Assembly: GCA_903900335.1 (NCBI GenBank)
Contig: CAIUMP010000044.1
Location: 98,686 to 162,685 of the forward strand
DNA: 64,000 nt
Direction: 5' to 3'
DNA from: an uncultured Ignavibacteriota bacterium
GTDB taxonomy: Bacteria; Bacteroidota; Ignavibacteria; Palsa-1295
The notes beneath the pieces are model-generated. The model did no database searches, was not told the origin of the DNA, and worked only from the letters and a program-made list of their open reading frames with translations. Positions 1 through 28,114 of this stretch are shown piece after piece. Numbering within the stretch: the first letter of the stretch is position 1; every line of letters starts with the position of its first letter. A program made the translations under genes and the position numbers.

Positions 1-32
1 TTGAATAGATTGAAGTTATTAACGTCGAACCT

Positions 33-1298
33 ATGAAGAGCTTCTCGCGATCAACCGTAAAAGCGTGGCTGCGGCGCAACAGCCACATGATGTTCCTGTT
101 GTTTGTCGGCATCGTTGCCGTCCGCGAGGCGGGCTGCGGGTATCGTGTCGACTCCCCAGTCACTGGCTCAACGCCAAGCCTGAGGATCACTGTAACTCCA
201 AAGGCCGCAACGATCGCGACCGGAGCCACACTGAATCTCTCCGCCTCCGTCACCGGATGGAAGAGTGATAGCACAGTACAATGGTCTATTTCCGGCACAA
301 ACGTGGGTGCGTTGACTGCGGCAGGCTCAAGTGCAACCTACACTGCACCGGCGACACTCGTATCGAGTCCAGTGATCGTAACGGTCATGGTCCGCTCGAA
401 CGAAGACACTTCACGAGTTGCGTATTCATCAATCACGATCGCAAAGCCGGTTGACACAACGCAGCAGGTTCAAATCCTGTTGACGCCGCTCACCGTTTCG
501 TTACAGGTTGGCAAGACGCAACCTTTCACGGCCACCGTCACGGGAAGCTCCAACACGGCTGTTACGTGGGCGCTTATCAGCGGTCCGGGTTCGATCTCCA
601 GCACTGGCCTTTACACAACGCCCGCATCGATTACAGGCACTTCGGCTGTTGCGGTCATCAAGGCGACTGCCGCAGCGAACGTCTTGGTCTCAGCTCAAGC
701 AACGATCACTATTCTTCCTCCGCCGGACACGACACCGTGTTTCACTCGCGACATACAGCCCATCATCAACAGCAATTGCACGATGGCTGGATGTCACGTA
801 AGCGGTGGCGGTGAAGCACGCGACCTGACAACATATAATGGCATCATGAGCTATGTGCGCGCTGGAACGGCAACGTCGAGCAAGCTCTATACCGTGCTCA
901 GTGCGTCGGGCGAAAACTTTATGCCCCGCGGTAAGGCTTCCCTCACTGCGGCGCAGAAATCACTTATCGCTCGATGGATCAACGCTGGTGCCAAGAACAC
1001 TGCGTGTCCGGTCGATACGAGCGGTGGCTGCGACACCAGCACGGTGTTATACTCCGGCTTCGTTGCGCCAACGCTTCAGAACTACTGCCTCGGATGTCAC
1101 TCGGGCACGAACCCATCCGGTGGGATCAACCTAGCCACCTATTCTGGTGTGCAAACGGTTGCGCTAAATGGACAATTGGTTGGCAGCCTGAATGGGACCC
1201 CGCCAAACTTCATCATGCCACAGACCGGTGCACCGCTTGACGCTTGTACGATCGCGAAGATCCGGGCGTGGGTAAATCACGGCGCTCTCAACAATTGA
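33..1298 (+). CDS. Secreted/lipoprotein c-type cytochrome: two Ig-like (Big_2) domains followed by two PSCyt1-like haem-binding domains
   Basis: N-terminal hydrophobic signal (MMFLLFVGIVAV..AGC). Two Big_2-like repeats (ITVTPKAATIATGATLNLSASVTG; TVSLQVGKTQPFTATVTGSS). Two repeats of the pattern C-x(2-4)-CH ... MP ... W(I/V)NxGA (CTMAGCH...NFMPRG...ARWINAGA; CLGCHSG...NFIMPQ...RAWVNHGA), typical of planctomycete-type cytochrome c domains. Confidence 0.5.
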   Translation: MKSFSRSTVKAWLRRNSHMMFLLFVGIVAVREAGCGYRVDSPVTGSTPSLRITVTPKAATIATGATLNLSASVTGWKSDSTVQWSISGTNVGALTAAGSSATYTAPATLVSSPVIVTVMVRSNEDTSRVAYSSITIAKPVDTTQQVQILLTPLTVSLQVGKTQPFTATVTGSSNTAVTWALISGPGSISSTGLYTTPASITGTSAVAVIKATAAANVLVSAQATITILPPPDTTPCFTRDIQPIINSNCTMAGCHVSGGGEARDLTTYNGIMSYVRAGTATSSKLYTVLSASGENFMPRGKASLTAAQKSLIARWINAGAKNTACPVDTSGGCDTSTVLYSGFVAPTLQNYCLGCHSGTNPSGGINLATYSGVQTVALNGQLVGSLNGTPPNFIMPQTGAPLDACTIAKIRAWVNHGALNN

Positions 1299-1307
1299 AA
1301 TACCACT

Positions 1308-1961
1308 GTGATGGGCACGCTGTACAAGGTTGTAACCGGCTTCACTCACCTCCCGGGACACCCCCGGGCAGGCGCGTACGAAGCGCTCGGCAGCCGTCTT
1401 CTGGAAATTTGCGGAGGGTACAATTTTTATCGGGGAGAGCTTGAAGATACCTGGTTATTCCAAATGCTTCGCGAGATCGGCGGAGAATTCACGCATTCCG
1501 TTTCAGACAACCCTCAAAAGAATACCATCGAGTACCAATGCGTGACTCATGAGAAGTTCCGCTGGCTTGCCAGAGCACGTGAGGAGGATAGCCAATCCGA
1601 GGTGTTCATCTGGATCGACTACGGTGTCCTACACAATCCTCGAATCACCCCGGAGCACATCCAAACCTTCCTGAACAGAATAACAGATCAGCGGTTTGCC
1701 ATTCCCGGTTGTTGGGCAGAGAAATATGTTGATTATGAGCAGCACCCAAATTGGCGCTTTTGCGGCGCAGTGATGGTTGTTCCCAGGGCCTGGGTGCTGC
1801 CGTTCTATGAAGCGGCCCGTGAAAGCGTACGGGAATACATCCTTCGAACGCGCAACATTTCCTGGGACGTCAACACCATGGCACGGGTGGAACTTGCTGG
1901 AAAAATTCCAATAGAGTGGTATCAGGCCGACCATGACGAAACGATGTTCACCGCATACTGA
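1308..1961 (+). CDS. Hypothetical protein (217 aa), translationally coupled to the downstream Cyc2-like gene
   Basis: Clean ORF with no recognisable motifs. Its stop overlaps the next start (TGATG at 1959-1963). Lies inside the cytochrome cluster. Confidence 0.3.
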   Translation: MMGTLYKVVTGFTHLPGHPRAGAYEALGSRLLEICGGYNFYRGELEDTWLFQMLREIGGEFTHSVSDNPQKNTIEYQCVTHEKFRWLARAREEDSQSEVFIWIDYGVLHNPRITPEHIQTFLNRITDQRFAIPGCWAEKYVDYEQHPNWRFCGAVMVVPRAWVLPFYEAARESVREYILRTRNISWDVNTMARVELAGKIPIEWYQADHDETMFTAY

Positions 1962-3247
1962 TGGCCACCTCCTTCCCACAATCGGAGCCTCCCACCCGAC
2001 TCCGCTCTACTACTCCCCTTCCTATGATTCATTCCTCGTGTAACTCTCTCTCCAAGCAGCATACTGCGAAAATTGGCGTAGTCTGGTTTGCTCTTATGCT
2101 CTTCGCACTCGGAGCGTCAACGGCAGCCGCGATCCCCCGCTTCTCCCTGTTGACGGGCACGCGTTGCTCTGTCTGCCACTTCAACCCGCAAGGCAGCGGG
2201 TTGCGCACGCAACTTGGGTGGGAGATGATGAACGAGACCGGGCTACTCAAGTGGCATGATGTTTCGCTGGATACGTCAGGCATTAGCCCGACGAACGGGC
2301 TATTCGGCAACGTGCTCTTCCCGGGGTTTGATGGAAGATTGCAGCAGGTGCGGCTATCGCGTACAGGTGAGTCGAAGTTGATACCGATGCAGATGTCGGT
2401 AGGCCTTGGGTTGCAGTTTGGGCAGCAGCTTTCGCTCTCGACGAATGTCAACATCGCGAGTGTTGCGGAGCGCGCACGTGGTGGATCGCTCTATCCCGGT
2501 GAGACGGATTACGATCTCGCGTTGCAGTATCAGCCGGATGTCACACTTCCCTCTATCCGCGCCGGTATGATCGAACCAAGCTTTGGCGTGCGGCAGGATG
2601 ACCACACCATCTTCACCAACGAGGAGGCTGCGATACAAGGCACCGAGCTAATCCCCCCATACTACAACGAACTTGGTGTCGAAGTAACGTACGAAGGGAT
2701 GCGCTGGATAACGGTCAATGCCGGTGTCTTCAACTCATACAATCTCGCGCTGATCGACCCGACGATCGGCACGGTGAATTCCATGACGGACTTTTCGCAC
2801 CCGACGCTCGCGGCGCGCGTGATGTTCTGGCCGCAGTTGTTAGAGCAAGGGATCAATATGGAAGTCGGTGGTTCGGTTATTTCGAACGGCTCTTTCCGAT
2901 TGCTCAACGGCTTCGCCGGCTTCGGGCTGGCGGACAAGTCCTCCCTGTTCTTCGAAACGCTGTATGGCACGAACTCCGACCAGCGTATCATCCGCAATTT
3001 CAGTGTGATCGGCAGCTATGAACTTGCCGCGTGGCTGGCCGCCGAGTGGCGCTATGACTGGGGACAGACCGAACTCTATCCGAACATCGGGCTAAGCTTT
3101 GCGCAAGGCTTTCTTATTGGGTTGGAGTTCTTCCCCGCACCGTTTATCGAGATCCGCCCCGAGTATCGCGTCCTCCACAAAACGCCATACGGGTCGGACG
3201 GCACTTTCACCGGCCAATGGACCGGACAGATCCATGTGTTTTATTGA
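1961..3247 (+). CDS. Cyc2-like fused cytochrome-porin (outer-membrane beta-barrel with an N-terminal CXXCH haem motif)
   Basis: Signal peptide (VVWFALMLFALGASTAAA). Single CSVCH about 11 residues into the mature protein. About 400 aa with alternating hydrophobic beta-strand pattern and an aromatic girdle. C-terminal ...QIHVFY matches the OMP terminal signature. At 428 aa it is the right size for Cyc2 family iron oxidases. Alternative start at 2024 (MIHSS). Confidence 0.5.
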   Translation: MATSFPQSEPPTRLRSTTPLPMIHSSCNSLSKQHTAKIGVVWFALMLFALGASTAAAIPRFSLLTGTRCSVCHFNPQGSGLRTQLGWEMMNETGLLKWHDVSLDTSGISPTNGLFGNVLFPGFDGRLQQVRLSRTGESKLIPMQMSVGLGLQFGQQLSLSTNVNIASVAERARGGSLYPGETDYDLALQYQPDVTLPSIRAGMIEPSFGVRQDDHTIFTNEEAAIQGTELIPPYYNELGVEVTYEGMRWITVNAGVFNSYNLALIDPTIGTVNSMTDFSHPTLAARVMFWPQLLEQGINMEVGGSVISNGSFRLLNGFAGFGLADKSSLFFETLYGTNSDQRIIRNFSVIGSYELAAWLAAEWRYDWGQTELYPNIGLSFAQGFLIGLEFFPAPFIEIRPEYRVLHKTPYGSDGTFTGQWTGQIHVFY

Positions 3248-3253
3248 TCGCGG

Positions 3254-3469
3254 ATGAGCAGAGCATTTGTAAAGGAATCAGAGGGTGAATGGCTCGGAGA
3301 TGTTGCTCCGGAAATTGCCGCACTCGAGCGCTTCCTCACGCGTGAGAGTGGTGAGAAGATCTACCAACTTGAGTTGACCATCGAAACCGCAACAGGCCGC
3401 GAGATTCACGAGATGAACAACGGTGATCGCTATGCGCTGGATATGGATCGGCGGTGGCGGAAGCTTTAA
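3254..3469 (+). CDS. Small hypothetical protein (71 aa)
   Basis: ORF begins 7 nt after the Cyc2-like stop. No recognisable motifs. Confidence 0.25.
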   Translation: MSRAFVKESEGEWLGDVAPEIAALERFLTRESGEKIYQLELTIETATGREIHEMNNGDRYALDMDRRWRKL

Positions 3470-3625
3470 GAGCGCAGGGTTTGGGAAGCAGGCGCTTCCC
3501 GAACCCTGTCCAAAGCGCGGGGACGTCTGTCACGGGGATGATTGTCGAACTCCTCAGTCCCGATACGCACGAAGTGGAGTTGAGCGACGCGTCGTGCGAG
3601 GAGACTCGACCAATGCACTGCATCC

Positions 3626-3826
3626 TTATCTCAGGCCTGCGGGTTCGCTGAGATTAGCGGGTTTTGAATCGGATTGACGTCGTTGCTCTCGGGCGTATTT
3701 CTCACGGTTCGCTTTGATAATTTGGCTCAATCGCTTATGCTCCTCTTCGGTAAGGGGCGTACTTTGGACATAGATATCGAAATCGTCGAGTCGAGCAAAA
3801 TCAGGTGTTTTTTTGTGTCCCATCAA
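3626..3826 (-). CDS. Small hypothetical protein (66 aa), lysine/arginine-rich
   Basis: ORF overlaps the upstream 187-aa ORF by 26 nt, suggesting a two-gene unit. Local GC is lower than in the flanks. Confidence 0.3.
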   Translation of the reverse strand: MMGHKKTPDFARLDDFDIYVQSTPLTEEEHKRLSQIIKANREKYAREQRRQSDSKPANLSEPAGLR

Positions 3827-4364
3827 AATTCTCGCTATCGAAATCGTTGAAATATTGCCGTGTTAGAATAAGCGCTTCCGGTGTGTTTATCAACATCCGA
3901 ATGCCCCATAATAGTTGTGCTCCTATCGTCTCTTGGTAGTGAGGAATCAGAGCGGTTTTAGATTCGAATGCCACTGTGCCTCCATACCCGTTTTCGAAGG
4001 CCAGTTTAGATGCGAATGCAAAAAGATTACCGGGTACTCCGACAAAGAGCTTTTGTTGGCCTTTGTTGAATTCCGAACTCTCGATGAGGTGAACGAAGAC
4101 GTGATCCCCGAGGTCTTCGATGCTGATCAACCCCTGAATAATAGTCGGGTTCTCGCGGGTCGTCAATTTATAGACCTCCCGTTGCTGTTGGCGGAGTTCA
4201 AACGTCCAATCGAATTGCCACGCACCGTCGTCCAGCAATTTTGAGTCCGATGGATAAATTTGTTCGATAATCGTGTCGAATCTCTCACCGGAGATGCGGA
4301 GTTCGATAGACCTCGTGAGCTTATCGATTTTGACATTGAGACGGCTCGTTCGGGTGGTCTTCAT
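3801..4364 (-). CDS. Hypothetical protein (187 aa), possible acyltransferase-like fold
   Basis: ORF sits in a lower-GC stretch. Weak GNAT-like central segment (VGVPGNLFAFASKLAFENGYGG). No confident family call. Confidence 0.3.
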   Translation of the reverse strand: MKTTRTSRLNVKIDKLTRSIELRISGERFDTIIEQIYPSDSKLLDDGAWQFDWTFELRQQQREVYKLTTRENPTIIQGLISIEDLGDHVFVHLIESSEFNKGQQKLFVGVPGNLFAFASKLAFENGYGGTVAFESKTALIPHYQETIGAQLLWGIRMLINTPEALILTRQYFNDFDSENFDGTQKNT

Positions 4365-4716
4365 TGTTCAAAGTTAATATTTCTTGCCGGAAACCTTGTG
4401 AAATCCTTTCCATGCGTACCTGTCGCGGAATGCGAGCGGGATGTCGAGCGAGGTCGCTCGACTTACTCCAGCAATTCCGGGTCTTTGGAAATTGGGGGAA
4501 CCGCAAAATAATTATGGAAATCGCTTTCTGTCCCAAAGACAAAATTCCGTAAGTTATTGATTTCATTGAAGAGTTCATGAAGCACAAACCGCACAAACGA
4601 ATCGTGCACGTAATTTCAGGAGAGTGAGCACGGGTTTGCACAAAGACAACTTTCCAAGAAAACGTGTGCCTTTATCAAGCCCAAATCAAAAACACACGAA
4701 TTATAGCTTTCTCCCT

Positions 4717-4790
4717 GTCATTCCGAGCTGGCGAGGAATAGCGCGCGGAGGTGCTCCTTGACGAGGGATTCCTCGCAGGCTCGGAATGAC
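4717..4790. repeat. 74-bp imperfect palindrome (GTCATTCCGAGC-TGG-CGAGGAAT ... ATTCCTCG-CAG-GCTCGGAATGAC) in the atpD upstream region
   Basis: Arms are exact reverse complements (12+8 bp each side) around a GC-rich centre containing a smaller ggag/ctcc hairpin. Confidence 0.8.
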
Positions 4791-4810
4791 GTTTTCTGCG
4801 AGCGGCATGA

Positions 4811-6358
<1,548 letters not shown>

Positions 6359-6715: not shown

Positions 6716-8026
6716 TTGCCCATCCACTCGAATGAAGTCAACGTCGATATTCAATACTTGGGGGGTGGAAGAGACATGGGAACTCGTAACTCGTTCATCG
6801 CGCATACCATCGGACTCGAACGGCAAGTGCCGACAATCCGACAAAGCGCAAGATCAGAATCTTTCCTCTATGCAAATCGGTACATAGCCTCCACAGCGGT
6901 GGGGGCGATCGTGTTCGCACCGATGGCATGGCACGTCGTGCTTGATCCTGTGCCGGGTTCGGACTTTAGCATGCATCTCGGCCTGGCAACGCGCATGTGG
7001 CAGGAAGGAGCCATCGGCCTTCCTCATTTCCTGTATCATTTTCTCATTCTGCTCATGTCCAACTGCATGGGCATGACTCTGAAACTGGCAAGTCTATTGC
7101 TGACAACGGCAGGGTTGGCTGCCATCCTGCCACTGTCCCAGCTTGTGATCTTCCGGGAGCGTGGCGGCCTGTCAGCCTTGTCAATTGTGCTCGTTACTTC
7201 TATCGCCTCATCCATCACAATTTGGACGATCCCGTCGCATCACCTCTATTTCGGCTATATCCCGCTTGCCGTTTACCACAGCCCAACGATGACACTCATG
7301 AAACCGCTGGCGCTGTGGAATTTCCTTCTCCTATCAAGAGGATTGACCGTGCGGATCAGCTCCGCCAGGGTACAAAGGTGGAGTGTTATTTCCCTCATTC
7401 TCTGTGGGCTTGCTAAACCAAGCTACGTCTTGATACTTTTGCCAGCTGCCATCGTGTTCGTCTGTATTCGAAAACTTCTCCGGGCGGAAGCTTCGTGGTG
7501 GTTCTTGCTTCACTGTGTGGTTGTTCCGAGTCTCGCTCTGTTGATATGGCAGTACTGTTTCACGTATCTTTCAAATTCCGCCTTCTATTGCGAGAGGGGT
7601 GAGACGGGAATCGAGTTTGCACCGTTGCTGGCAGTCAGGACGGTTAGTGGCAATCTGCTGATCAAACTCCTTGGTTCCATCGCCTTCCCGCTCAGCGTGT
7701 CCTGCGTGCATTGGAATCGGCTACGTGCGTATCCTGAATACAACTTTGCTCTGCTGCTCTTCAGCTTCGGTGCGCTGTGCTTTTACCTACTTGCCGAACG
7801 AGGCATGCATTTGACCCATCTAAATTTTCTTTGGAGCGCTTCAATCGGCCTGTTGCTCTGGTTTTTGTGCTGTGTTCGAATTCTTGTTGTAGAGACCAGA
7901 AACTCGGAGCGCGAGATGGGGTCGATGGGTACCCTCATTTGCTGTTTCGTGCTAGCCCTGCATATTATCTGCGGGGCGCTATGGTACGCGGTCGAAGTTA
8001 CCCGCTCGTTTGCTGCTGGATGGTGA
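6716..8026 (+). CDS. Polytopic membrane protein of unknown function (about 10 or more TM helices)
   Basis: Long ORF dominated by hydrophobic helices. Start uncertain; internal Met candidates at 6776 and 6929. Confidence 0.35.
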   Translation: MPIHSNEVNVDIQYLGGGRDMGTRNSFIAHTIGLERQVPTIRQSARSESFLYANRYIASTAVGAIVFAPMAWHVVLDPVPGSDFSMHLGLATRMWQEGAIGLPHFLYHFLILLMSNCMGMTLKLASLLLTTAGLAAILPLSQLVIFRERGGLSALSIVLVTSIASSITIWTIPSHHLYFGYIPLAVYHSPTMTLMKPLALWNFLLLSRGLTVRISSARVQRWSVISLILCGLAKPSYVLILLPAAIVFVCIRKLLRAEASWWFLLHCVVVPSLALLIWQYCFTYLSNSAFYCERGETGIEFAPLLAVRTVSGNLLIKLLGSIAFPLSVSCVHWNRLRAYPEYNFALLLFSFGALCFYLLAERGMHLTHLNFLWSASIGLLLWFLCCVRILVVETRNSEREMGSMGTLICCFVLALHIICGALWYAVEVTRSFAAGW

Positions 8027-9819
8027 GGATGCGTGCTCGGCATGAGGAGTGCCCTGATTGCTTTGCTGCACGGAGCAAATCCACTACCCAAACGGAACTG
8101 ACAACACAGCTCGAAAATCCATGCGGCGTGATCGTTGATGTGCACTCTCGCGCCGGCGACAAACTGTTCTTCATTCGTGTTGAAGTTGGTATGCCATCAT
8201 TTGCTACTAGCCCATCTTACCAGAATCCCGCTCTCCACCGCTTCGCAAGTGAGCTGACTCATCAGCTTGGGCTGAGTAAGGAGTTGGAGCGCCTCCATAC
8301 TCAAGTAGCCAGGATCCCACTCTTCGTCACATTGTACTCGGATGAGACGCTCTATGATGTGCTCGCCTACTGGAAGACACTTCGGGAGTCGTACGATATC
8401 CAATCCACATATATCACCGCGTTGAGTGCCTGGAATTCACGCGACTCCATTAAACGTACCGTTGCTTCCTTGAGGGTTGCCGATCTGCTGGAGCGGGTTA
8501 GTTGCTGGGAAGGGGCCATTGAAGTGCTCCGCGAACAGATCGCTGATTGCGTTGAGCGTGGAGATAGAATTGTTGAGGCCAAGTCACGAGCCGCTCTTGC
8601 AAAGTTATTCGGTCGGCGAGCGCAGCATAAACTAGCGCTGATCGAATATGAGTTGGCAAAGCAAGTCTTCCAGGAGTTTGGCGACAACGAAGGGATCAGA
8701 GCGGTTCTTGAGGGCATGGCAAACGTCCGGTTGAATCTCGGACAGATGGAAGAGGCGCAAGCGCACTGGCGTCAGTTGAAGGTCCTTTGCACGGATGCGG
8801 GTGATGAGAGCGGCCTTGCGTCGCTCTATCACAACAGTGCTACTCTGGACTTGTATCAGGGCAAGTTTGAGGTAGCTTTAGAGAATCTCGATCGAGCCAT
8901 GGAGATAAATAGGCGGACTGGCAATCGTACTTGGCTCGGCAATAATGCCAGCTCCCTCGCTTCCGCTTACTACTTTCAAGGTGACTTCCGAAAGTCCTTA
9001 ATCGAATTCACCCGCAGCAAAGAGATTCGAGAAGGTCTTGGAGACCGTCAAGGAGCCGCTGCAGCGATGGGAAATATTGCAGGGGTGTACTACGAATTGG
9101 GTGAGTTCGATTTGGCGCTTGAGAGTTCACGAAAGAACTACGCTATCCGAGTTGAGATCGGTGATCGTGATGGCGCGTCTAGCGCGATACTAAATATGGG
9201 CAACATCCTCACGGAACTTGGTGACTGGGAAGCAGCGATAAAGAGCATTGTCATCGCCGAGGCGGAAAATCGGGACACGGGCGCACGTGTCTCACTTGCG
9301 TATAGCTTATTTGGGGCTGCCTTATCGTTTTACAAGGTTGTTCCCAACCACACTGCAATGCCTGAATGGCTGCCACTTCATGTAACCGGTGCGAATCCCG
9401 ACAATTGGCGTGTGCGGACTCTCGCGCTTTCAGAAGCAAAGGCACGGGAATGCGTCGAACTCTCCAAGGAGATGAACCTGAGCGGCCCTCTCTTTTCTGC
9501 TCAAGTCCATTTGGCGACCATTGCCAATGAGGAAGCAGACTATCCTGGTGCATACGCAATGTTGGAGGCACTGCTCCACGGCAACTCCGACGAAGCCCAA
9601 CTTGCCAACATACACTTTGAGCTTTGGGGTACTTTTTCCAGGGCTGCTGAACGAGCGGTGCTATTGCTCGACGATCATGAAGCAGATGCGGCAGCGAAAT
9701 TGCATCATTTCGACGAAGCTCTTTCACGCTACACCCAACTTTGTGAGAACTCGGCAAGCATCGAGCATAGGAGACGACTCAATGAGCTGGAGAGCAAGCG
9801 TCATATGTTCGCAGAGTAA
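8020..9819 (+). CDS. TPR-repeat protein
   Basis: Multiple 34-aa TPR-like repeats (e.g. ...ASAYYFQGDFRKSLIEF..., ...AGVYYELGEFDLALES...). The track ORF starts at 7777 inside the upstream gene. Start chosen at the first Met after the membrane-protein stop (8020/8029). Confidence 0.45.
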   Translation: MVRMRARHEECPDCFAARSKSTTQTELTTQLENPCGVIVDVHSRAGDKLFFIRVEVGMPSFATSPSYQNPALHRFASELTHQLGLSKELERLHTQVARIPLFVTLYSDETLYDVLAYWKTLRESYDIQSTYITALSAWNSRDSIKRTVASLRVADLLERVSCWEGAIEVLREQIADCVERGDRIVEAKSRAALAKLFGRRAQHKLALIEYELAKQVFQEFGDNEGIRAVLEGMANVRLNLGQMEEAQAHWRQLKVLCTDAGDESGLASLYHNSATLDLYQGKFEVALENLDRAMEINRRTGNRTWLGNNASSLASAYYFQGDFRKSLIEFTRSKEIREGLGDRQGAAAAMGNIAGVYYELGEFDLALESSRKNYAIRVEIGDRDGASSAILNMGNILTELGDWEAAIKSIVIAEAENRDTGARVSLAYSLFGAALSFYKVVPNHTAMPEWLPLHVTGANPDNWRVRTLALSEAKARECVELSKEMNLSGPLFSAQVHLATIANEEADYPGAYAMLEALLHGNSDEAQLANIHFELWGTFSRAAERAVLLLDDHEADAAAKLHHFDEALSRYTQLCENSASIEHRRRLNELESKRHMFAE

Positions 9820-9913
9820 ATAAACCTTACCTGTTCCGTGAGAAGAGCGGAAAATTAGCCGCCTGACCGTCAATAAATCTTACGATTGGGCAATTGGGTC
9901 AATTGATTGAGTA

Positions 9914-10606
9914 TTGGAATTCCGCGGAATCGAGCGAAATTCCGTAGCTGGCAAGAATCTGGTACTTCGCGCGGGTATGTTTGAAATCCGCATACATGGT
10001 CGCGGCGGACAGGGTGTTGTCACTGCGGCTGAACTACTATCTATTGCAGCCTTTCGCGAGGGCCGACACGCGCAGGCATTCCCGAGTTTCGGTTCCGAAC
10101 GTACCGGTGCGCCGGTCATGGCCTTCTGCCGCATAGACGAGAAGCCCATCCGTTCCCGCGAGCCGATCGCTCGGCCCGACGCGCTCATCATCCAGGATCC
10201 AACCTTGCTTCTAATGGAGGGATTGTTCACGGGCCTCCGCAGTGATGGATACGTTCTGATCAATTCGAAGAAGACCCCTACCGAGCTTGGACTGGCCAGT
10301 CTGGAGCACAAACTTCCCGCCGGACATATCATCACCGTTCCAGCCACCGACCTGGCGATGAAATTCATTGGCAGGCCCATCCCGAATGCCGCGTTGCTTG
10401 GAGCCTTTGCCGCCCTGACCGAAGTGGTTAGCATCAATGCCGTATCGCTTGCCATTCGGGAGAAATTCAAGGGTGATATAGCCGAGAAAAATATTCTCGC
10501 AGCGACCGCAGCGAGTGAAGCTGCACGGCAGGAGCGGGTGCAGGAGATTGAAATGCTTCAAGACGAACAACGAGAATCCACTATGCTGCAGGAGGAAATT
10601 TGCTGA
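9914..10606 (+). CDS. porG: 2-oxoacid:ferredoxin oxidoreductase subunit gamma
   Basis: IHGRGGQGVVTAAELLS motif typical of POR/KOR gamma. Likely true start at 9977 (MFEIRIHG). Overlaps next gene by 7 nt. Confidence 0.75.
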   Translation: MEFRGIERNSVAGKNLVLRAGMFEIRIHGRGGQGVVTAAELLSIAAFREGRHAQAFPSFGSERTGAPVMAFCRIDEKPIRSREPIARPDALIIQDPTLLLMEGLFTGLRSDGYVLINSKKTPTELGLASLEHKLPAGHIITVPATDLAMKFIGRPIPNAALLGAFAALTEVVSINAVSLAIREKFKGDIAEKNILAATAASEAARQERVQEIEMLQDEQRESTMLQEEIC

Positions 10607-16114: not shown

Positions 16115-16576
16115 ATGATCCGGTCTGTTACTGAGGCGGATGCTGATGTTTGGGAACACCTGCGCGAGTTGTTCTGGCCGACTGATGCAGGAGAGCATGG
16201 CAGGGAGAAAGGCGAACATTCAAGAGACATTGCGAAGTACTTTAATGGGGATCGAAGAGAGCCCGCCGAGGTGCTGCTCGCCATCAATCATGCGGGGCGG
16301 GTCGTTGGGTTCACAGAACTATCGATTCGGAATATTGTCGATGGGTGCTCGACTGGGCGTGTTGCATATCTGGAAGGTTGGTTCGTTGAGGAAGAGGAGC
16401 GCGGAAAGGGATTCGGCGCAGCTCTGATGCGCGCAAGTGAGGATTGGGGACGAGCGCAAGGCTGTACGGAATTCGCATCGGATACGGAGATCACAAACGA
16501 GTTGAGTATTTCGATGCACACACGTCTGGGTTTTGAAGAGACGGGTCGCGTTGCGCAGTTTAGGAAAGAACTCTGA
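16115..16576 (+). CDS. GNAT N-acetyltransferase, AAC(6')-like
   Basis: N-terminal ...VWEHLRELFWP... and GNAT motif A (EEERGKGFGAALM), reminiscent of aminoglycoside 6'-N-acetyltransferases. Confidence 0.6.
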   Translation: MIRSVTEADADVWEHLRELFWPTDAGEHGREKGEHSRDIAKYFNGDRREPAEVLLAINHAGRVVGFTELSIRNIVDGCSTGRVAYLEGWFVEEEERGKGFGAALMRASEDWGRAQGCTEFASDTEITNELSISMHTRLGFEETGRVAQFRKEL

Positions 16577-16679
16577 GGGATCTACAAACGGGGAAGCGCT
16601 CTGGTGGGCGCGCCGAACGCGCCACATCTTGGGATTTGTCATCCCTCGTTACTCGTTACCCGTCCACCTAACGCAGAGT

Positions 16680-18410
16680 ATGCCCGACATCTTTATTTCC
16701 TACTCCCGCAAAGACTCCGCGCAAGCACTTGGGCTTGCTGATCGACTGCGTGCATCTGGGATGGATGTGTGGATCGATCAACATGGTATTGAAGCGGCAA
16801 CCGCCTGGTCGAAGGAGATCGTTGACGCGATCGACACTGCCAATGTGTTCATCCTGCTGCTCTCGGCTTCCTCGATCGGGAGTGTTAATGTCGTGCGTGA
16901 GCTTGCCATCGCCAGTGAGTCCGATAAGCCCATTTTGCCCATCGAACTCGAATCGGTTGTGCTGCCAAGCGAGTTCAAGTACCAACTTTCGGGTGTGCAG
17001 CGCGCACACTATTCTGATTTTGCGGGAATACTTCGAGCCGTAACAAGACTCATTACCTCGCAGAGGAATCCGTCAGATTCCCCTATACCGTCCCAGCATG
17101 AACCGAGTCTCGAGCCTAATGATACGCGAAAGAGCCTCATGGTTCTTCCTTTCGAAGATCTCTCCCCCGGTGCCGACAATGCCTGGTTCGCAGATGGATT
17201 GATGGGCGAGTTGATTTCATCACTCTCTCACATCAAATCCTTACGTCTCATAGACCAGCGCACATCGAGAGACTTTAAGGATGTAAAAGTTAAGCTTACT
17301 GATATTGCGAAGGAGTACGCTATTCGATACTTCATCGAAGGCTCTGTTCGCAAATTTGGTGACCAGATCAAGGTCTCTCTGACACTCCTCGATATAATAA
17401 CGGGGGATCATCTCTGGCAGTACTCTCATCGCGGGGATTTCTCTGACATCTTCGATGTGCAGGAGCAGCTTGCAGCGAAGACGGTAGAGGGGTTGCGACT
17501 TCATCTCACGTCTGACGAAGAAGTAAAACTAAAGGAGCGCGGGACAGACAATGCCGAAGCATACGAGCTGTACCTCAAAGGCAATGAGTATTATGATCGG
17601 CATACGAAAGCGACGTTTGGATATGCACTCTCCGTCTTTCGTGATGCTATTGATCTCGATCCGAAATTCGCTGAAGCCTACGTCGGCGCGGCGGACACAC
17701 TTTCAGAGACCTGGCGTGTATATGACCGTAATCCAGCCATGCTCGAAGAGGCTGAGCAACTCCTTGAGACTGCTCGAGGGCTTAAGCCATCGCTGACACG
17801 TATCCTTGATATTCTCGCTCACATTCGGCTTCGGCAGGGGCGATTTGAAGAAGCGGAGGAGTTGGCGAAGAAGTTTGTCGAGTTGGAGCCGGAGAGTCGT
17901 CTCAGCCATTTTACCCTCGGCTTTTTGTACATGGAAATCGGGCAACCCACCCGCGCGATTCCCGCCTTCGAGGCGTGTATTCGTGTTCAGCCCGACTACC
18001 TCACCGCGCGCTGGAATCTCGTGCTAACGTTCGATCGCGCTGGTGATACTGCGGGACGAATTCGAGCGGCCGAAGAAGCGATTCCACTCTTCGAAAAGCG
18101 ACTCCGCCAATTCCCGGATGACGAGGACACGCGATGCCAACTACCGAATCTACTTTTCCACGCTGGACGCAAGGTGGAGGCAAGCGTGGCGCTGGCGACC
18201 GTCACGGGACTAAAAGACGCGGGTTCATTCTATAATCTTGCGTGTCTGGCGTCGAATCTCGGAAAACACGAACTTGCAGTTCGCTACCTCAGGAACGCAC
18301 TGGAAGGTGGGTTCGCCCACAAAGAGATCTTTCGTGTAGATCCTGATCTTGAGGCGATTCGGAATCGGGATGACTTTCGAGAACTAATGGCAGAATTTCA
18401 CGTACACTAG
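16680..18410 (+). CDS. TIR-domain protein with central TolB-N-like domain and C-terminal TPR repeats
   Basis: Begins MPDIFISYSRKDS...WIDQ (bacterial TIR_2). Central LMVLPFEDLSP...WFADGLMGEL...RYFIEGSVRKFGDQIKVSLTLLDIITGDHLW block. Then TPRs. Track ORF starts at 16533, but the paralogue at 60977..62752 starts at the equivalent MPDIF. Confidence 0.65.
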   Translation: MPDIFISYSRKDSAQALGLADRLRASGMDVWIDQHGIEAATAWSKEIVDAIDTANVFILLLSASSIGSVNVVRELAIASESDKPILPIELESVVLPSEFKYQLSGVQRAHYSDFAGILRAVTRLITSQRNPSDSPIPSQHEPSLEPNDTRKSLMVLPFEDLSPGADNAWFADGLMGELISSLSHIKSLRLIDQRTSRDFKDVKVKLTDIAKEYAIRYFIEGSVRKFGDQIKVSLTLLDIITGDHLWQYSHRGDFSDIFDVQEQLAAKTVEGLRLHLTSDEEVKLKERGTDNAEAYELYLKGNEYYDRHTKATFGYALSVFRDAIDLDPKFAEAYVGAADTLSETWRVYDRNPAMLEEAEQLLETARGLKPSLTRILDILAHIRLRQGRFEEAEELAKKFVELEPESRLSHFTLGFLYMEIGQPTRAIPAFEACIRVQPDYLTARWNLVLTFDRAGDTAGRIRAAEEAIPLFEKRLRQFPDDEDTRCQLPNLLFHAGRKVEASVALATVTGLKDAGSFYNLACLASNLGKHELAVRYLRNALEGGFAHKEIFRVDPDLEAIRNRDDFRELMAEFHVH

Positions 18411-26221: not shown

Positions 26222-28114
26222 ATGCCGAATATCGCCGTATCCCCCGACACCCAACCCCACGAAGGCCGCTTCAGCGCGCGCCTTCGTGACGCCGTATCGC
26301 GCCCAATCCTGACGGACGGCTCCATGTCCGCCACGCTCCATGCGGCGGGACTGACCGAGCAGCCCATCGAGCGCTACAATCTCACGCAGCCAATCGCCGT
26401 AGAGCATGTTCACCGCAGCTTCGCCGATGCCGGCGCGGAGTTGTTGATGACGAACACGGAGCACGCGAATCCGCTCACCCTTGCGCGACATTACTCGGCG
26501 GACAAAACCTACGAGATCAATCGCAAAGGCGTGTGGCTTGCACGAACTGTTGCGAACGATAACGGACTTCTCGTCGCTGCTGCGGTCGGTCCCATAGGCA
26601 AATTCCTCGCACCAATCGGCTCGCTGAAGCATGTGGATGTCCGCCGAGCATTCAACGAACAGATCCTCGCTCTCCTTGATGGCGGACCGGACTGCATCAT
26701 CCTTAAGAGCTTTATTGATCTCACCGAATTGGAGATCGCAATCGAAGAAGCACAGCGCATAGCTCCCAATCTTCCACTCATCGCACAGAAGACCTTTCCC
26801 GAGGATGGTGCTCTGCTCGCAACAGACTTCGCGCGCAAAGTTGCAGAGCGATTAAAGTCCTTCGGCTTGGCCGCCATTGGGACCAATGGCACCGTCGGTC
26901 CGAACCGGATGCTCTCGATCATTCAAGCATTCGCAATTCCCGGAATCGCAATCACCGCACAGCCGGATATTGGTATCCCGACGCTCGTTGATGGACGACC
27001 AACCTATCATGCAACGCCGGAATATCTCGGGCAGAGCACGAAGCGCCTTGTCGAGGCAGGTGTGTCGATCATCGGTGCGTATGGCGGTGCAACGCCGGAG
27101 CACATCCGCGCGATTCGTGATGCTATTGCGGGTGTGAGTGCTGGTGAGATCAAGGTGCAAGAGATTACCGTCAAAGCTGAGGTGAAGAGCGGTCACGCGA
27201 GCGCAGAGAAGTATTCGCAATTCAAGCAGAACCTCGGCAAGAAATTCTTATCTACCGTCGAACTTGATGTCCCGCGCGGACTCGATATGTCCAGCGTGCT
27301 AGAAGGCGCATCCTATCTCGCGAAGGCTGGTATTGACGCCGTGAATATCTCTGATGGTGCCCGTGCGCGTCTGCGCATGAGTCCGATAACGATCAGCCAT
27401 CTCGTGCAAACGACGTGCGGCATTGAAGCCATAAGTCACTTCGCCTGTCGCGATAGGAATATGGTCGGGCTGCAATCCGAGTTGCTGGGCGCGGAAGCAC
27501 TTGGCGTTCGCAATATCCTCTGCGTCACTGGCGACCCTGCGCAGATCGGCGATTACCCGTATGCCACAAGCGTCTATGATATCGATGCTATCGGTCTCAT
27601 CCGTGCCGTCAAGTCCATGAACGAAGGCTGCGATTTGATGGGCAACCCAATCTCCGGCGGCACTCTCAATTGCACGCACTTCATGATCGCCTGCGGATCG
27701 AATCCTGTTGCGGAAGATATGGAGCGCGAACTCAGTCGCATGGAGCGCAAGATCGGTGAAGGCTGCGAGGTTATCTTCACGCAACCTCTCTTCGAGATCG
27801 AATCGCTCGCCAAGTTTGTCGATGCTATACGTCCGTTTCGCGGATCATCGCGCATCATGCTTGGCATCCTGCCGCTTCGAAGCAAGCGCCACGCGGAATT
27901 CTTGCATTATGAAGTGCCGGGCATGTCCATCCCCGATTGGATTCACGCGCGCATTAGCAGGAAGACGAGCATTGAAGAGCAGAGCAAGGAAGGTATCGCC
28001 ATCTGTGTGGAGTTCTTGAAAGAAGCCAAGTCGCTTGTCGATGGCGTGTATCTGATGCCGCCGTTTAAGAAGTATGACATGGCGGTGGACATCCTTGAAA
28101 AGATAGGAGCATAA
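26222..28114 (+). CDS. Bifunctional homocysteine S-methyltransferase / 5,10-methylenetetrahydrofolate reductase
   Basis: N-terminal HMT/Pterin-independent methyltransferase region (ILTDGSMSATLHAAGL). C-terminal MTHFR region (...STVELDVPRGLDM...GVRNILCVTGD...). Single ORF with no internal stop. Confidence 0.7.
   Translation: MPNIAVSPDTQPHEGRFSARLRDAVSRPILTDGSMSATLHAAGLTEQPIERYNLTQPIAVEHVHRSFADAGAELLMTNTEHANPLTLARHYSADKTYEINRKGVWLARTVANDNGLLVAAAVGPIGKFLAPIGSLKHVDVRRAFNEQILALLDGGPDCIILKSFIDLTELEIAIEEAQRIAPNLPLIAQKTFPEDGALLATDFARKVAERLKSFGLAAIGTNGTVGPNRMLSIIQAFAIPGIAITAQPDIGIPTLVDGRPTYHATPEYLGQSTKRLVEAGVSIIGAYGGATPEHIRAIRDAIAGVSAGEIKVQEITVKAEVKSGHASAEKYSQFKQNLGKKFLSTVELDVPRGLDMSSVLEGASYLAKAGIDAVNISDGARARLRMSPITISHLVQTTCGIEAISHFACRDRNMVGLQSELLGAEALGVRNILCVTGDPAQIGDYPYATSVYDIDAIGLIRAVKSMNEGCDLMGNPISGGTLNCTHFMIACGSNPVAEDMERELSRMERKIGEGCEVIFTQPLFEIESLAKFVDAIRPFRGSSRIMLGILPLRSKRHAEFLHYEVPGMSIPDWIHARISRKTSIEEQSKEGIAICVEFLKEAKSLVDGVYLMPPFKKYDMAVDILEKIGA

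Follow-up and report, generated by a model that had tools for sequence, protein, structure and literature searches.

The left end of a 64,000-nucleotide stretch of DNA from an uncultured Ignavibacteriota bacterium (GenBank assembly GCA_903900335.1, contig CAIUMP010000044.1, forward-strand positions 98,686 to 162,685; hereafter the window) carries three genes on one strand, of which the first and third encode predicted haem proteins. The locus is best explained as a conserved outer-membrane redox module, here arranged in the order Rieske [2Fe-2S] protein, lipoprotein cytochrome (gene 1), an inserted gene (gene 2) and a fused cytochrome-porin (gene 3). Gene 3 is proposed, from its sequence and predicted fold, to encode an outer-membrane porin of 16 strands that would carry one c-type haem, covalently bound on an N-terminal peptide of ~35 residues. 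We class it as a Cyc2-superfamily haem-porin that appears to possess its own signature and its own conserved partner set, and it is this combination that seems to be new. An earlier note on the same DNA had seen in genes 1 and 3 a minimal arrangement of cytochrome-porin and dihaem cytochrome. Related loci reveal a larger unit, in which the constant partner is a Rieske lipoprotein with a twin-arginine translocation (Tat) signal, encoded off the left edge of the window, and in which a YceI-like protein and a protein with a single transmembrane (TM) segment are frequent.

A predicted fused cytochrome-porin and its relation to Cyc2

The gene 3 open reading frame (ORF) specifies 428 aa, or 407 aa from a probable start at M22, and the mature protein would comprise ~371 aa. 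By inspection, the sequence beginning at M22, MIHSSCNSLSKQHTAKIGVVWFALMLFALGASTAAA followed by IPRF, has the basic n-region and hydrophobic core of a signal peptide, and the homologues of gene 3 start 18-60 residues ahead of the haem motif. A single CXXCH (CSVCH, residues 69-73) lies at mature position 12. In the AlphaFold2 (AF2) model, which was built with 76 homologues and has a mean predicted local distance difference test score (pLDDT) of 82, 16 beta-strands form a barrel of ~310 aa, with pLDDT above 90 across most of residues 119-427, and the best structural match of this barrel is OprP. The Cyc2 architecture that the earlier note recognised in gene 3 (a predicted signal peptide, one N-terminal CXXCH and a fused barrel seen in the structure prediction) is therefore borne out, as is the aromatic end that it read as VFY (the C terminus is HVFY), while the barrel is shorter than the roughly 400 aa it had assigned.

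These features extend across the gene 3 family. Among the 180 members of at least 365 aa, exactly one CXXCH is present in 177, at a median position of 36, so that the motif in gene 3 is no chance occurrence and is conserved in orthologues, as the earlier note had required. The register P-x9-C is kept in 166 members and an aromatic C-terminal residue in 172. The barrel of the family is unusually conserved, with ~34 invariant residues that are mostly charged. In a collection of 5.8 billion proteins, ~90 close homologues were found, all of them from metagenome-assembled genomes (MAGs) of Kapabacteria or Bacteroidota. An exhaustive profile search returned 1049 cluster representatives (50% identity) at E≤1e-3, 139 of which reached E≤1e-30, and all 1049 derive from uncultured bacteria. 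Gene 3 itself has no match in Pfam, NCBIfam or a PDB sequence search.

Cyc2 proteins are recognised by a signal peptide, one CXXCH, the motif AxPxFAR[Q/K][T/Y] upstream and PxL downstream of it, a length of at least 365 aa, and a 16-strand OprO/P-like porin (Keffer et al., 2021; PMC8406198); the upstream motif serves as an inclusion filter (PMC8406198). Gene 3 has the length and the 16-strand OprO/OprP-like barrel. For comparison, 81 motif-positive Cyc2 reference sequences were used. Five of these, from chromids or plasmids of Caballeronia, Ralstonia, Methylocystis, Ideonella and Polymorphobacter, were obtained with tblastn of a typed consensus against plasmids, and 76 are full-length, single-haem proteins recovered by scanning metagenome contigs with a back-translated motif. 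Their consensus, A-[LVI]-P-x-F-A-R-[QK]-[TY]-G-x-x-C-x-x-C-H-…-F-P-x-L-[NT]-x-[FY]-G, corresponds in gene 3 to A-I-P-R-F-S-L-L-T-G-T-R-C-S-V-C-H-F-N-P-Q-G-S-G-L-R-T-Q-L-G-W. The register is identical from the cleavage site via Pro, Phe and Thr-Gly to the haem cysteines (A-x-P-x-F-x3-T-G-x2-CxxCH). However, P.FAR[QK][TY] occurs in 0 of the 180 family members, gene 3 having AIPRFSLLT, with A, P, F, T and the spacing in common, and PxL after the CXXCH is found in none of the 180, compared with 76 of the 81 references. The family has a signature of its own, G-[GS]-x-R, in 176 of its 180 members, with the longer form N-P-x-G-[GS]-G-x-R-[TN]-x-L-G-[WF]. Against a hidden Markov model (HMM) built from the 81 Cyc2 sequences, gene 3 scores 19.9 bits and the family has a median of 18.8 and a maximum of 45; no Cyc2 member falls below 184. 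Membership of gene 3 in canonical Cyc2 is thus refuted by motifs and HMM alike, and with it the earlier description of the protein as, strictly speaking, a Cyc2-type Fe(II) oxidase; a distinct sister family is indicated.

A relationship to Cyc2 nevertheless emerges from profile comparisons. Since the family HMM gave only 10-16 bits against five Cyc2 homologues with hmmsearch, aligning just the signal peptide and haem motif and being too weak to use alone, hhalign tests with controls were carried out. At full length, the family and the 81 Cyc2 sequences align over 336 collinear columns with 97.8% probability and E=1.2e-12. When the comparison is restricted to the mature haem peptide, the score is 43.4 (E=2e-10), compared with at most 29.9 (median 21.3) for 30 column shuffles in which CxxCH was held fixed and 20-22 for unrelated haem-domain profiles. 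For the barrel alone, E is 1.2e-3 (probability 20%, 238 columns), and reversed barrel decoys give E=0.3-0.65. The similarity of gene 3 to Cyc2 thus appears to come mostly from the haem peptide. On these alignments the family is probably homologous to Cyc2, and we read it as a deep, unannotated sister branch that would share ancestry and architecture with Cyc2 and fall outside the published family.

The Rieske and lipoprotein cytochrome partners

The Rieske gene is complete in the source contigs of the lineage to which the window belongs (L004-L006; L004:766-1230), where it encodes 154 aa and stops 29 nt before gene 1. A Tat signal (TRREF) and a lipobox-like Cys are found in its product, together with the cluster boxes CTHQNC...CACHLSHF, and the product matches the Rieske family in Pfam with E=6.5e-12. 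The conservation of this gene pair was followed in a synteny set of 66 haem-porin loci from species-representative genomes, all of them MAGs. The loci are labelled Kapaibacteria, Ignavibacteria, Bacteroidota or Chlorobiota, with some from Myxococcota/Bradymonadia and single ones from Armatimonadota and Candidatus Didemnitutus. A Rieske gene stands on the same strand beside the porin gene in at least 59 of the 66 loci, or in 65 of 68 when neighbours are grouped by unbiased BLAST clustering, with a median gap of 22 nt. Where the Rieske gene is upstream, its stop codon falls a median of 146 nt ahead of the first haem Cys codon, so the two genes abut or overlap. The Rieske family has 117 members across 65 loci, often with more than one per locus.

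The partner Rieske proteins are of the bc1/b6f/arsenite-oxidase type, with both disulfide cysteines, and both cluster boxes are present in 59 of the 66 partners. A Tat motif (59/59) and a lipobox-like Cys (58/59) are near-universal, and Phe occupies the position equivalent to Tyr165 in 53 of 59. In the PDB the closest match is 5cxm, with E=4.6e-11; the entry was deposited under the name "cytochrome b6/f complex iron-sulfur subunit". No cytochrome b family occurs among the recurrent neighbour families of the haem-porin loci, so the partner does not have the setting of a subunit in a Rieske/cytochrome b complex.

Other genes recur on the same strand beside the porin: a cytochrome with a CX4CH motif in 40 of the 66 loci (48/68 by clustering), a single-TM protein of ~110 aa in 43, and a YceI-like protein in 27. 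In the most frequent of the recurrent arrangements, seen in 15 loci, the order is cytochrome c, porin, TM protein, Rieske. Another 11 loci have Rieske, porin, cytochrome c, and two orders are found in 10 loci each, namely Rieske, porin, cytochrome c, YceI, TM protein and Rieske, porin, YceI, TM protein. The YceI-like periplasmic protein and the ~110-aa single-TM protein, which has a conserved "LFGT", can be seen for example at L017:10515-11427, L042:9091-10989 and L043:9339-10434, and in more than 40 other loci; both are absent from the 64-kb window. A single MAG (Chersky.7_45) carries two paralogous modules with differing gene orders (L007 and L008), and an extra pair of Rieske and cytochrome c genes lies a few kilobases from a complete module in another locus (L015:1621-3354 and 7362-10139). 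In one distant locus a cytochrome P460-like gene is found immediately upstream of the haem-porin gene (L060:7227-7790; Pfam E=2.4e-5, just under the cut-off).

This set of partners is not shared with canonical Cyc2. In a control of 125 canonical-motif Cyc2 loci, a Rieske gene lies within 4 kb in only 7, where it encodes a membrane-anchored protein within complete operons for Rieske, 4Fe-4S, cytochrome b and multihaem proteins, and YceI or small TM genes occur in 0 of the 125. The idea of a Rieske protein as a general partner of Cyc2 was rejected on this count. At L104, L133, L174 and L176, a canonical-motif Cyc2 gene is directly upstream of such an operon, with a multihaem cytochrome of 4-8 CXXCH motifs.

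Gene 1 encodes the cytochrome partner. A signal peptide is followed by a lipobox Cys (Cys35) that is invariant in the homologue alignment, and a Cys after the signal peptide is found in nearly all cytochromes encoded beside the porin. In the AF2 model (pLDDT 85.8), two beta-sandwiches (residues ~51-137 and ~147-228) precede two small helical domains (~237-317 and ~340-415). Foldseek matches to the model are dominated by the former, which resemble tandem immunoglobulin (Ig)- or cadherin-like folds (E about 1e-8 to 1e-9), and are uninformative for the haem domains. The helical domains contain CTMAGCH (249-255) and CLGCH (352-356), each followed by Met-Pro and WIxxGA (WINAGA and WVNHGA, respectively). 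In the alignment, C249, C254, H255, M297, W315 and G319 of the first haem domain are invariant, as are C352, G354, C355 and H356 of the second, in which M395 is nearly so. A secreted protein with two Ig-like domains and two PSCyt1-type haem domains, as the earlier note had proposed, is therefore supported by fold prediction and motif conservation alike. With Pfam, Big_2 exceeds its cut-off in two stretches of gene 1, and Cytochrome_CBB3 stays under its own. The PSCyt1 search (PF07635) that the note had suggested succeeded in part: gene 1 itself scores 15.4 bits against a cut-off of 22, whereas a homologue (P0112) reaches 39.4 bits in two stretches and many further homologues carry precomputed PSCyt1 matches. 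The NCBIfam model LIC11213_lipo matches residues 231-321 of gene 1 with E=7.5e-11.

The unusual CX4CH spacing, to which the note had drawn attention, is real: C-[GAT]-x-[SG]-G-C-H is present in 46 of the 48 cytochromes encoded beside a haem-porin. A second haem domain, with CXXCH, occurs in only 17 of the 48, and the minimal partner of the porin is a monohaem CX4CH lipoprotein of ~130 aa. The CX4CH and CXXCH PSCyt1 pair of gene 1 is also seen, without the Ig-like domains, in dihaem lipoproteins of ~250 aa from Saprospiraceae and Chitinophagaceae (P0112-P0153). Meaningful PDB matches to a profile of the dihaem half of gene 1 are confined to two proteins. One is hydrazine synthase alpha, in its C-terminal haem domain (5c2v, E=5e-4); the other is FoxE (5mab, E=9e-4), the dihaem cytochrome with which Rhodobacter ferrooxidans SW2 oxidises Fe(II). 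The aligned FoxE segment passes the Pfam PSCyt1 threshold, as do relatives of gene 1, and the link between the two is therefore one of domain family and dihaem layout and not of orthology.

The close packing of the three genes on one strand, as first described, is confirmed: 9 nt separate genes 1 and 2, and genes 2 and 3 overlap by 1 nt or, with gene 3 starting at M22, are 62 nt apart (Table 1). Gene 2, however, stands outside the module. In this context it is confined to the window's own lineage (L004-L006) and is absent from all 66 related loci; at L001 and L007, Rieske, cytochrome c and porin genes follow in order with nothing between them. Identity among its 143 homologues falls from 100% directly to 50%. 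On two other contigs the homologues lie between genes for a large GT2 glycosyltransferase and an amidase/peptidoglycan-binding protein, beside an SU10-type portal gene. The family (~220-250 aa) is unannotated, with a weak resemblance to HtrL/YibB (E=0.011), and gene 2 has no Pfam, PHROG or PDB assignment. A role for gene 2 as a maturation or glycosylation factor of the module was rejected on synteny and on this phage-like context. Gene 4 is present only in the same species-level contigs and has no match in Pfam, NCBIfam or PHROG. A scan of bases 1-5000 for promoter and terminator signals did not beat shuffled sequence.

Table 1. Features at the left end of the window, numbered from its first base.
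Feature	Position	Strand	Basis or remarks
Rieske [2Fe-2S] gene, 3′ end	1..4	+	Last base of Val codon, then TGA stop (bases read T-TGA; stop at bases 2-4)
Gene 1, 421-aa predicted lipoprotein cytochrome	33..1298	+	Two haem domains of PSCyt1/FoxE type follow signal peptide, Cys35 and two Ig-like (Big_2) domains
Gene 1 signal peptide and lipobox (…VAVREAG-C35)	33..137	+	AF2 N-terminal helix, residues 6-35; C35 invariant in alignment
Gene 1 tandem Ig-like beta-sandwich domains	183..716	+	Pfam Big_2; DSSP on AF2 model; Foldseek
Gene 1 haem domain 1	741..992	+	CTMAGCH 777-797; Met297-Pro 918-932; WINAGA 975-992
Gene 1 haem domain 2	1050..1286	+	CLGCH 1086-1100; IMPQT 1212-1226; WVNHGA 1269-1286
Gene 2, 217 aa, lineage-specific interloper outside the conserved module	1308..1961	+	Synteny; context of homologues
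Gene 3, predicted fused monohaem cytochrome-porin	1961..3247	+	ORF from 1961; probable start M22 at 2024
Gene 3 probable signal peptide, M22-A57, cleavage between AAA and IPRF	2024..2131	+	n-, h- and c-regions by inspection; homologue starts
Gene 3 putative haem-binding peptide IPRFSLLTGTRCSVCHFNPQGSGLRTQLGWEMMN	2132..2233	+	CSVCH 2165-2179; near-invariant in family
Gene 3 predicted 16-strand beta-barrel, residues ~119-428	2315..3244	+	Contains invariant polar motifs
Gene 3 barrel motifs IPMQ, DDHT, RPEYR and C-terminal Q-x-H-x-F-Y	IPMQ 2384-2392; DDHT 2597-2608; RPEYR 3155-3169	+	Invariant
Gene 4, 71-aa ORF starting 7 nt past gene 3	3254..3469	+	Lineage-specific; module membership doubtful

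Also in the window, near the module, are a protein with a TIR domain fused to TPR repeats (16533-18410) and a second large TPR protein (7777-9819); at the related locus L001 a TIR-TPR gene likewise comes after the module. A 630-aa ORF at 26222-28114 fuses homocysteine S-methyltransferase and methylenetetrahydrofolate reductase domains.

Proposed direction of electron flow and substrate

The haem-porin, Rieske protein and cytochrome are proposed to move electrons inward, with Fe(II) as the most plausible reductant, a reading to which we give about an even chance. A small soluble reductant, most plausibly Fe(II), would enter the barrel and be oxidised at the porin haem. At ~35 residues the haem peptide is too small to fold independently and must therefore pack in or against the barrel, as has been argued for Cyc2, for which dissolved Fe2+ has been proposed to enter the pore (PMC8406198). 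The electron would pass to the Tat-exported, lipid-anchored Rieske [2Fe-2S] protein in the periplasm and then, or alternatively directly, to the lipoprotein cytochrome with its CX4CH and CXXCH haems of the PSCyt1/FoxE type. From there it would continue to the respiratory chain, possibly via YceI and the TM protein where these are present. The analysis shows the architecture and fold of the proteins, the conserved haem motifs, the likeness to Cyc2 and the linkage of the genes; that the cofactors are loaded, where the proteins reside, in which order and direction electrons move and what the substrate is are inferred from these.

Fe(II) oxidation is, as we infer, the most likely function of the module. 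Fe(II) is favoured as the substrate because both characterised relatives, Cyc2 and FoxE, oxidise it, and because the potentials of bc-type Rieske centres would be suited to accepting electrons from a haem near +200 mV. The haem of Cyc2PV-1 was measured near this value (PMC8406198), and FoxE is described as an Fe(II) oxidase, one which withdraws electrons from Fe(II) (PMC10654088).

A number of observations weigh against this assignment. The published Cyc2 motifs are absent from gene 3 and its Cyc2 HMM score is low, and transfer of function from Cyc2 would therefore be a long extrapolation. Barrel homology to Cyc2 appears above the level of decoys yet is not significant by itself, and the likeness of gene 1 to FoxE holds at the level of the PSCyt1 domain family only. 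The haem peptide of gene 3 is modelled with pLDDT below 50, and its position relative to the pore thus lies outside the model. Every database name among the homologues of gene 3 is "hypothetical protein". The synteny set, being drawn from MAGs, includes no cultured host, and the host lineages appear to be largely heterotrophs of soils, groundwater and lakes. No terminal oxidase or cytochrome b that might act as an electron sink was seen in the window survey. Finally, many canonical Cyc2 homologues occur in organisms that are not known as iron oxidisers (PMC8406198).

In its broadest form the proposal is more tentative. It is possible, with a probability well short of even, that Fe(II) or another dissolved metal is oxidised in uncultured Kapaibacteria, Ignavibacteria, Bacteroidota and Myxococcota by a widespread and undescribed system. 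In it, a deep-branching Cyc2-like haem-porin would pass electrons to a lipid-anchored Rieske protein and to a FoxE-like cytochrome with CX4CH, and YceI and a small membrane protein would often be present as well.

The same hardware could also work in another direction or on another substrate, and we consider this unlikely, if the most serious competitor. Electrons might flow outward from the Rieske protein or cytochrome c via the porin haem and reduce Mn(III/IV), chelated Fe(III), humic quinones or reactive oxygen species that are extracellular or accessible from the pore; alternatively, Mn(II), sulfide or an organic reductant might be oxidised. The sequence leaves direction and substrate unfixed, and the mostly non-lithotrophic host lineages and the P460-like gene directly upstream of one porin gene would both be compatible with such roles. 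So would the co-occurrence of the YceI-like and small TM proteins: YceI domains are known to bind lipids and isoprenoid quinones, a property that would fit a connection to the quinone pool whichever way the electrons run. However, the fairly high potential of bc-type Rieske centres makes them ill-suited to donating electrons to most Fe(III) minerals at neutral pH, and better as acceptors, which argues against outward flow. A single haem inside a narrow 16-strand pore would make no contact with solid acceptors, as has been argued (PMC8406198), and Cyc2 and FoxE, the only relatives to have been characterised, both oxidise Fe(II) (PMC8406198, PMC10654088).

That genes 1 and 3 form a minimal two-component system of a canonical Cyc2-type Fe(II) oxidase and a dihaem cytochrome, as the earlier note had it, is quite improbable. 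The architecture matches, the haem peptide is significantly similar, and the adjacent c-type cytochrome recalls many Cyc2 loci (59 of the 125 canonical loci have another CXXCH ORF nearby), but the FAR[Q/K] and PxL motifs are missing throughout the family, gene 3 scores far below Cyc2 members on their HMM, and the partner set differs from that of the 125 canonical loci. Very unlikely, too, is a solute porin in which the haem is structural, regulatory or sensory (for example in a redox-gated channel) and the redox neighbours are loosely related: the many charged invariant residues of the barrel could mark a specific solute pathway, and gene 3 has no Pfam or NCBIfam family, but the haem site is retained across the family and the near-universal same-strand Rieske linkage, at so short a median gap and across several phylum labels, argues for a functional redox partnership.

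Significance and comparison with known systems

Neutrophilic iron oxidation is traced in genomes chiefly through Cyc2, which is identified with an N-terminal motif filter and HMMs. The gene 3 family fails the motif filter and gene 3 reaches 20 bits on our stand-in Cyc2 HMM, so that surveys have probably passed over its 1049 clusters. Should the family act on Fe(II), the potential for iron cycling would be under-counted in Kapaibacteria, Ignavibacteria and Myxococcota of soils, groundwater, peat and lakes. In full-text literature searches, neither the gene 3 family nor a Cyc2-like protein with a Rieske partner was found described. According to work on Chlorobi, Cyc2 is restricted to Chlorobium and its non-phototrophic relatives lack it (PMC9342728), and the sampled diversity of Cyc2 has recently been claimed to have a surprisingly recent common ancestor (PMC12442345). 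A deep sister clade bears on the latter claim and could act as an outgroup with which to root or deepen the Cyc2 tree. The obligate pairing with a stand-alone Tat-lipoprotein Rieske would represent a new candidate route for periplasmic electron hand-off and, if true, the first known case, as far as we have found, of a Rieske protein as the direct periplasmic partner of an outer-membrane cytochrome. The conserved CX4CH haem site of the PSCyt1-type domain is of an uncharacterised kind.

The closest comparison is with Cyc2 (Acidithiobacillus ferrooxidans Cyc2, Mariprofundus Cyc2PV-1 and Leptospirillum Cyt572; clusters 1-3 of McAllister 2020 and Keffer 2021). Cyc2 and gene 3 both have a signal peptide and, right after its cleavage site, a short N-terminal peptide with a single CXXCH. 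They also share a fused 16-strand barrel with OprP as its best structural match, a length of ~400 aa, an aromatic C terminus and nearby genes for c-type cytochromes. In the gene 3 family, however, the FAR[Q/K] core of Cyc2 is replaced by F-[SA]-L-x, and the barrel is strongly conserved, whereas it is poorly conserved in Cyc2. The partners also differ, being a stand-alone Tat-lipoprotein Rieske, a CX4CH cytochrome, YceI and a small TM protein, as do the labelled taxa, which are Kapaibacteria, Ignavibacteria, Bacteroidota and Myxococcota for the gene 3 family and mainly Proteobacteria for Cyc2.

The C-terminal half of gene 1 is similarly related to FoxE through paired PSCyt1-type haem domains with the pattern ILP…C-xn-CH…MPP…WIxxGA, in which Met residues are potential distal ligands. 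Unlike FoxE, gene 1 has CX4CH in place of CXXCH at its first haem site (the second is CXXCH), so that it does not have the two CXXCH motifs of a FoxE-type protein, and it is a predicted lipoprotein with two N-terminal Ig-like domains. Neither the family of foxY, which encodes a pyrroloquinoline quinone (PQQ) protein, nor that of foxZ was found among the neighbours in the window or in the census of neighbour families.

The Rieske partner resembles 5cxm, which we take to be PetC3, the stand-alone periplasmic Rieske lipoprotein of Synechocystis PCC 6803. The two share bc/b6f-type cluster boxes, the disulfide cysteines and, in the aligned sequence, Phe at the position equivalent to Tyr165. PetC3 is Tat-exported and lipid-anchored and is not known to belong to a Rieske/cytochrome b complex; to our knowledge its function is still unclear, and we know of no outer-membrane haem-porin that partners it. 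The module Rieske gene differs from PetC3 in this respect, in being tightly linked to the gene for such a porin, and this pairing may supply a function for PetC3-like "orphan" Rieske proteins.

The phosphate-selective porins OprP and OprO have 12% sequence identity to gene 3 and lack both haem and redox partners. MtrAB, MtoAB and PioAB, like the system proposed here, combine an outer-membrane beta-barrel with c-type haem for electron transfer across the outer membrane. In those complexes, however, a 26-strand barrel surrounds a separate decahaem protein (PMC8406198), whereas gene 3 is predicted to have 16 strands and a single fused haem peptide, with a partner cytochrome of one or two haems.

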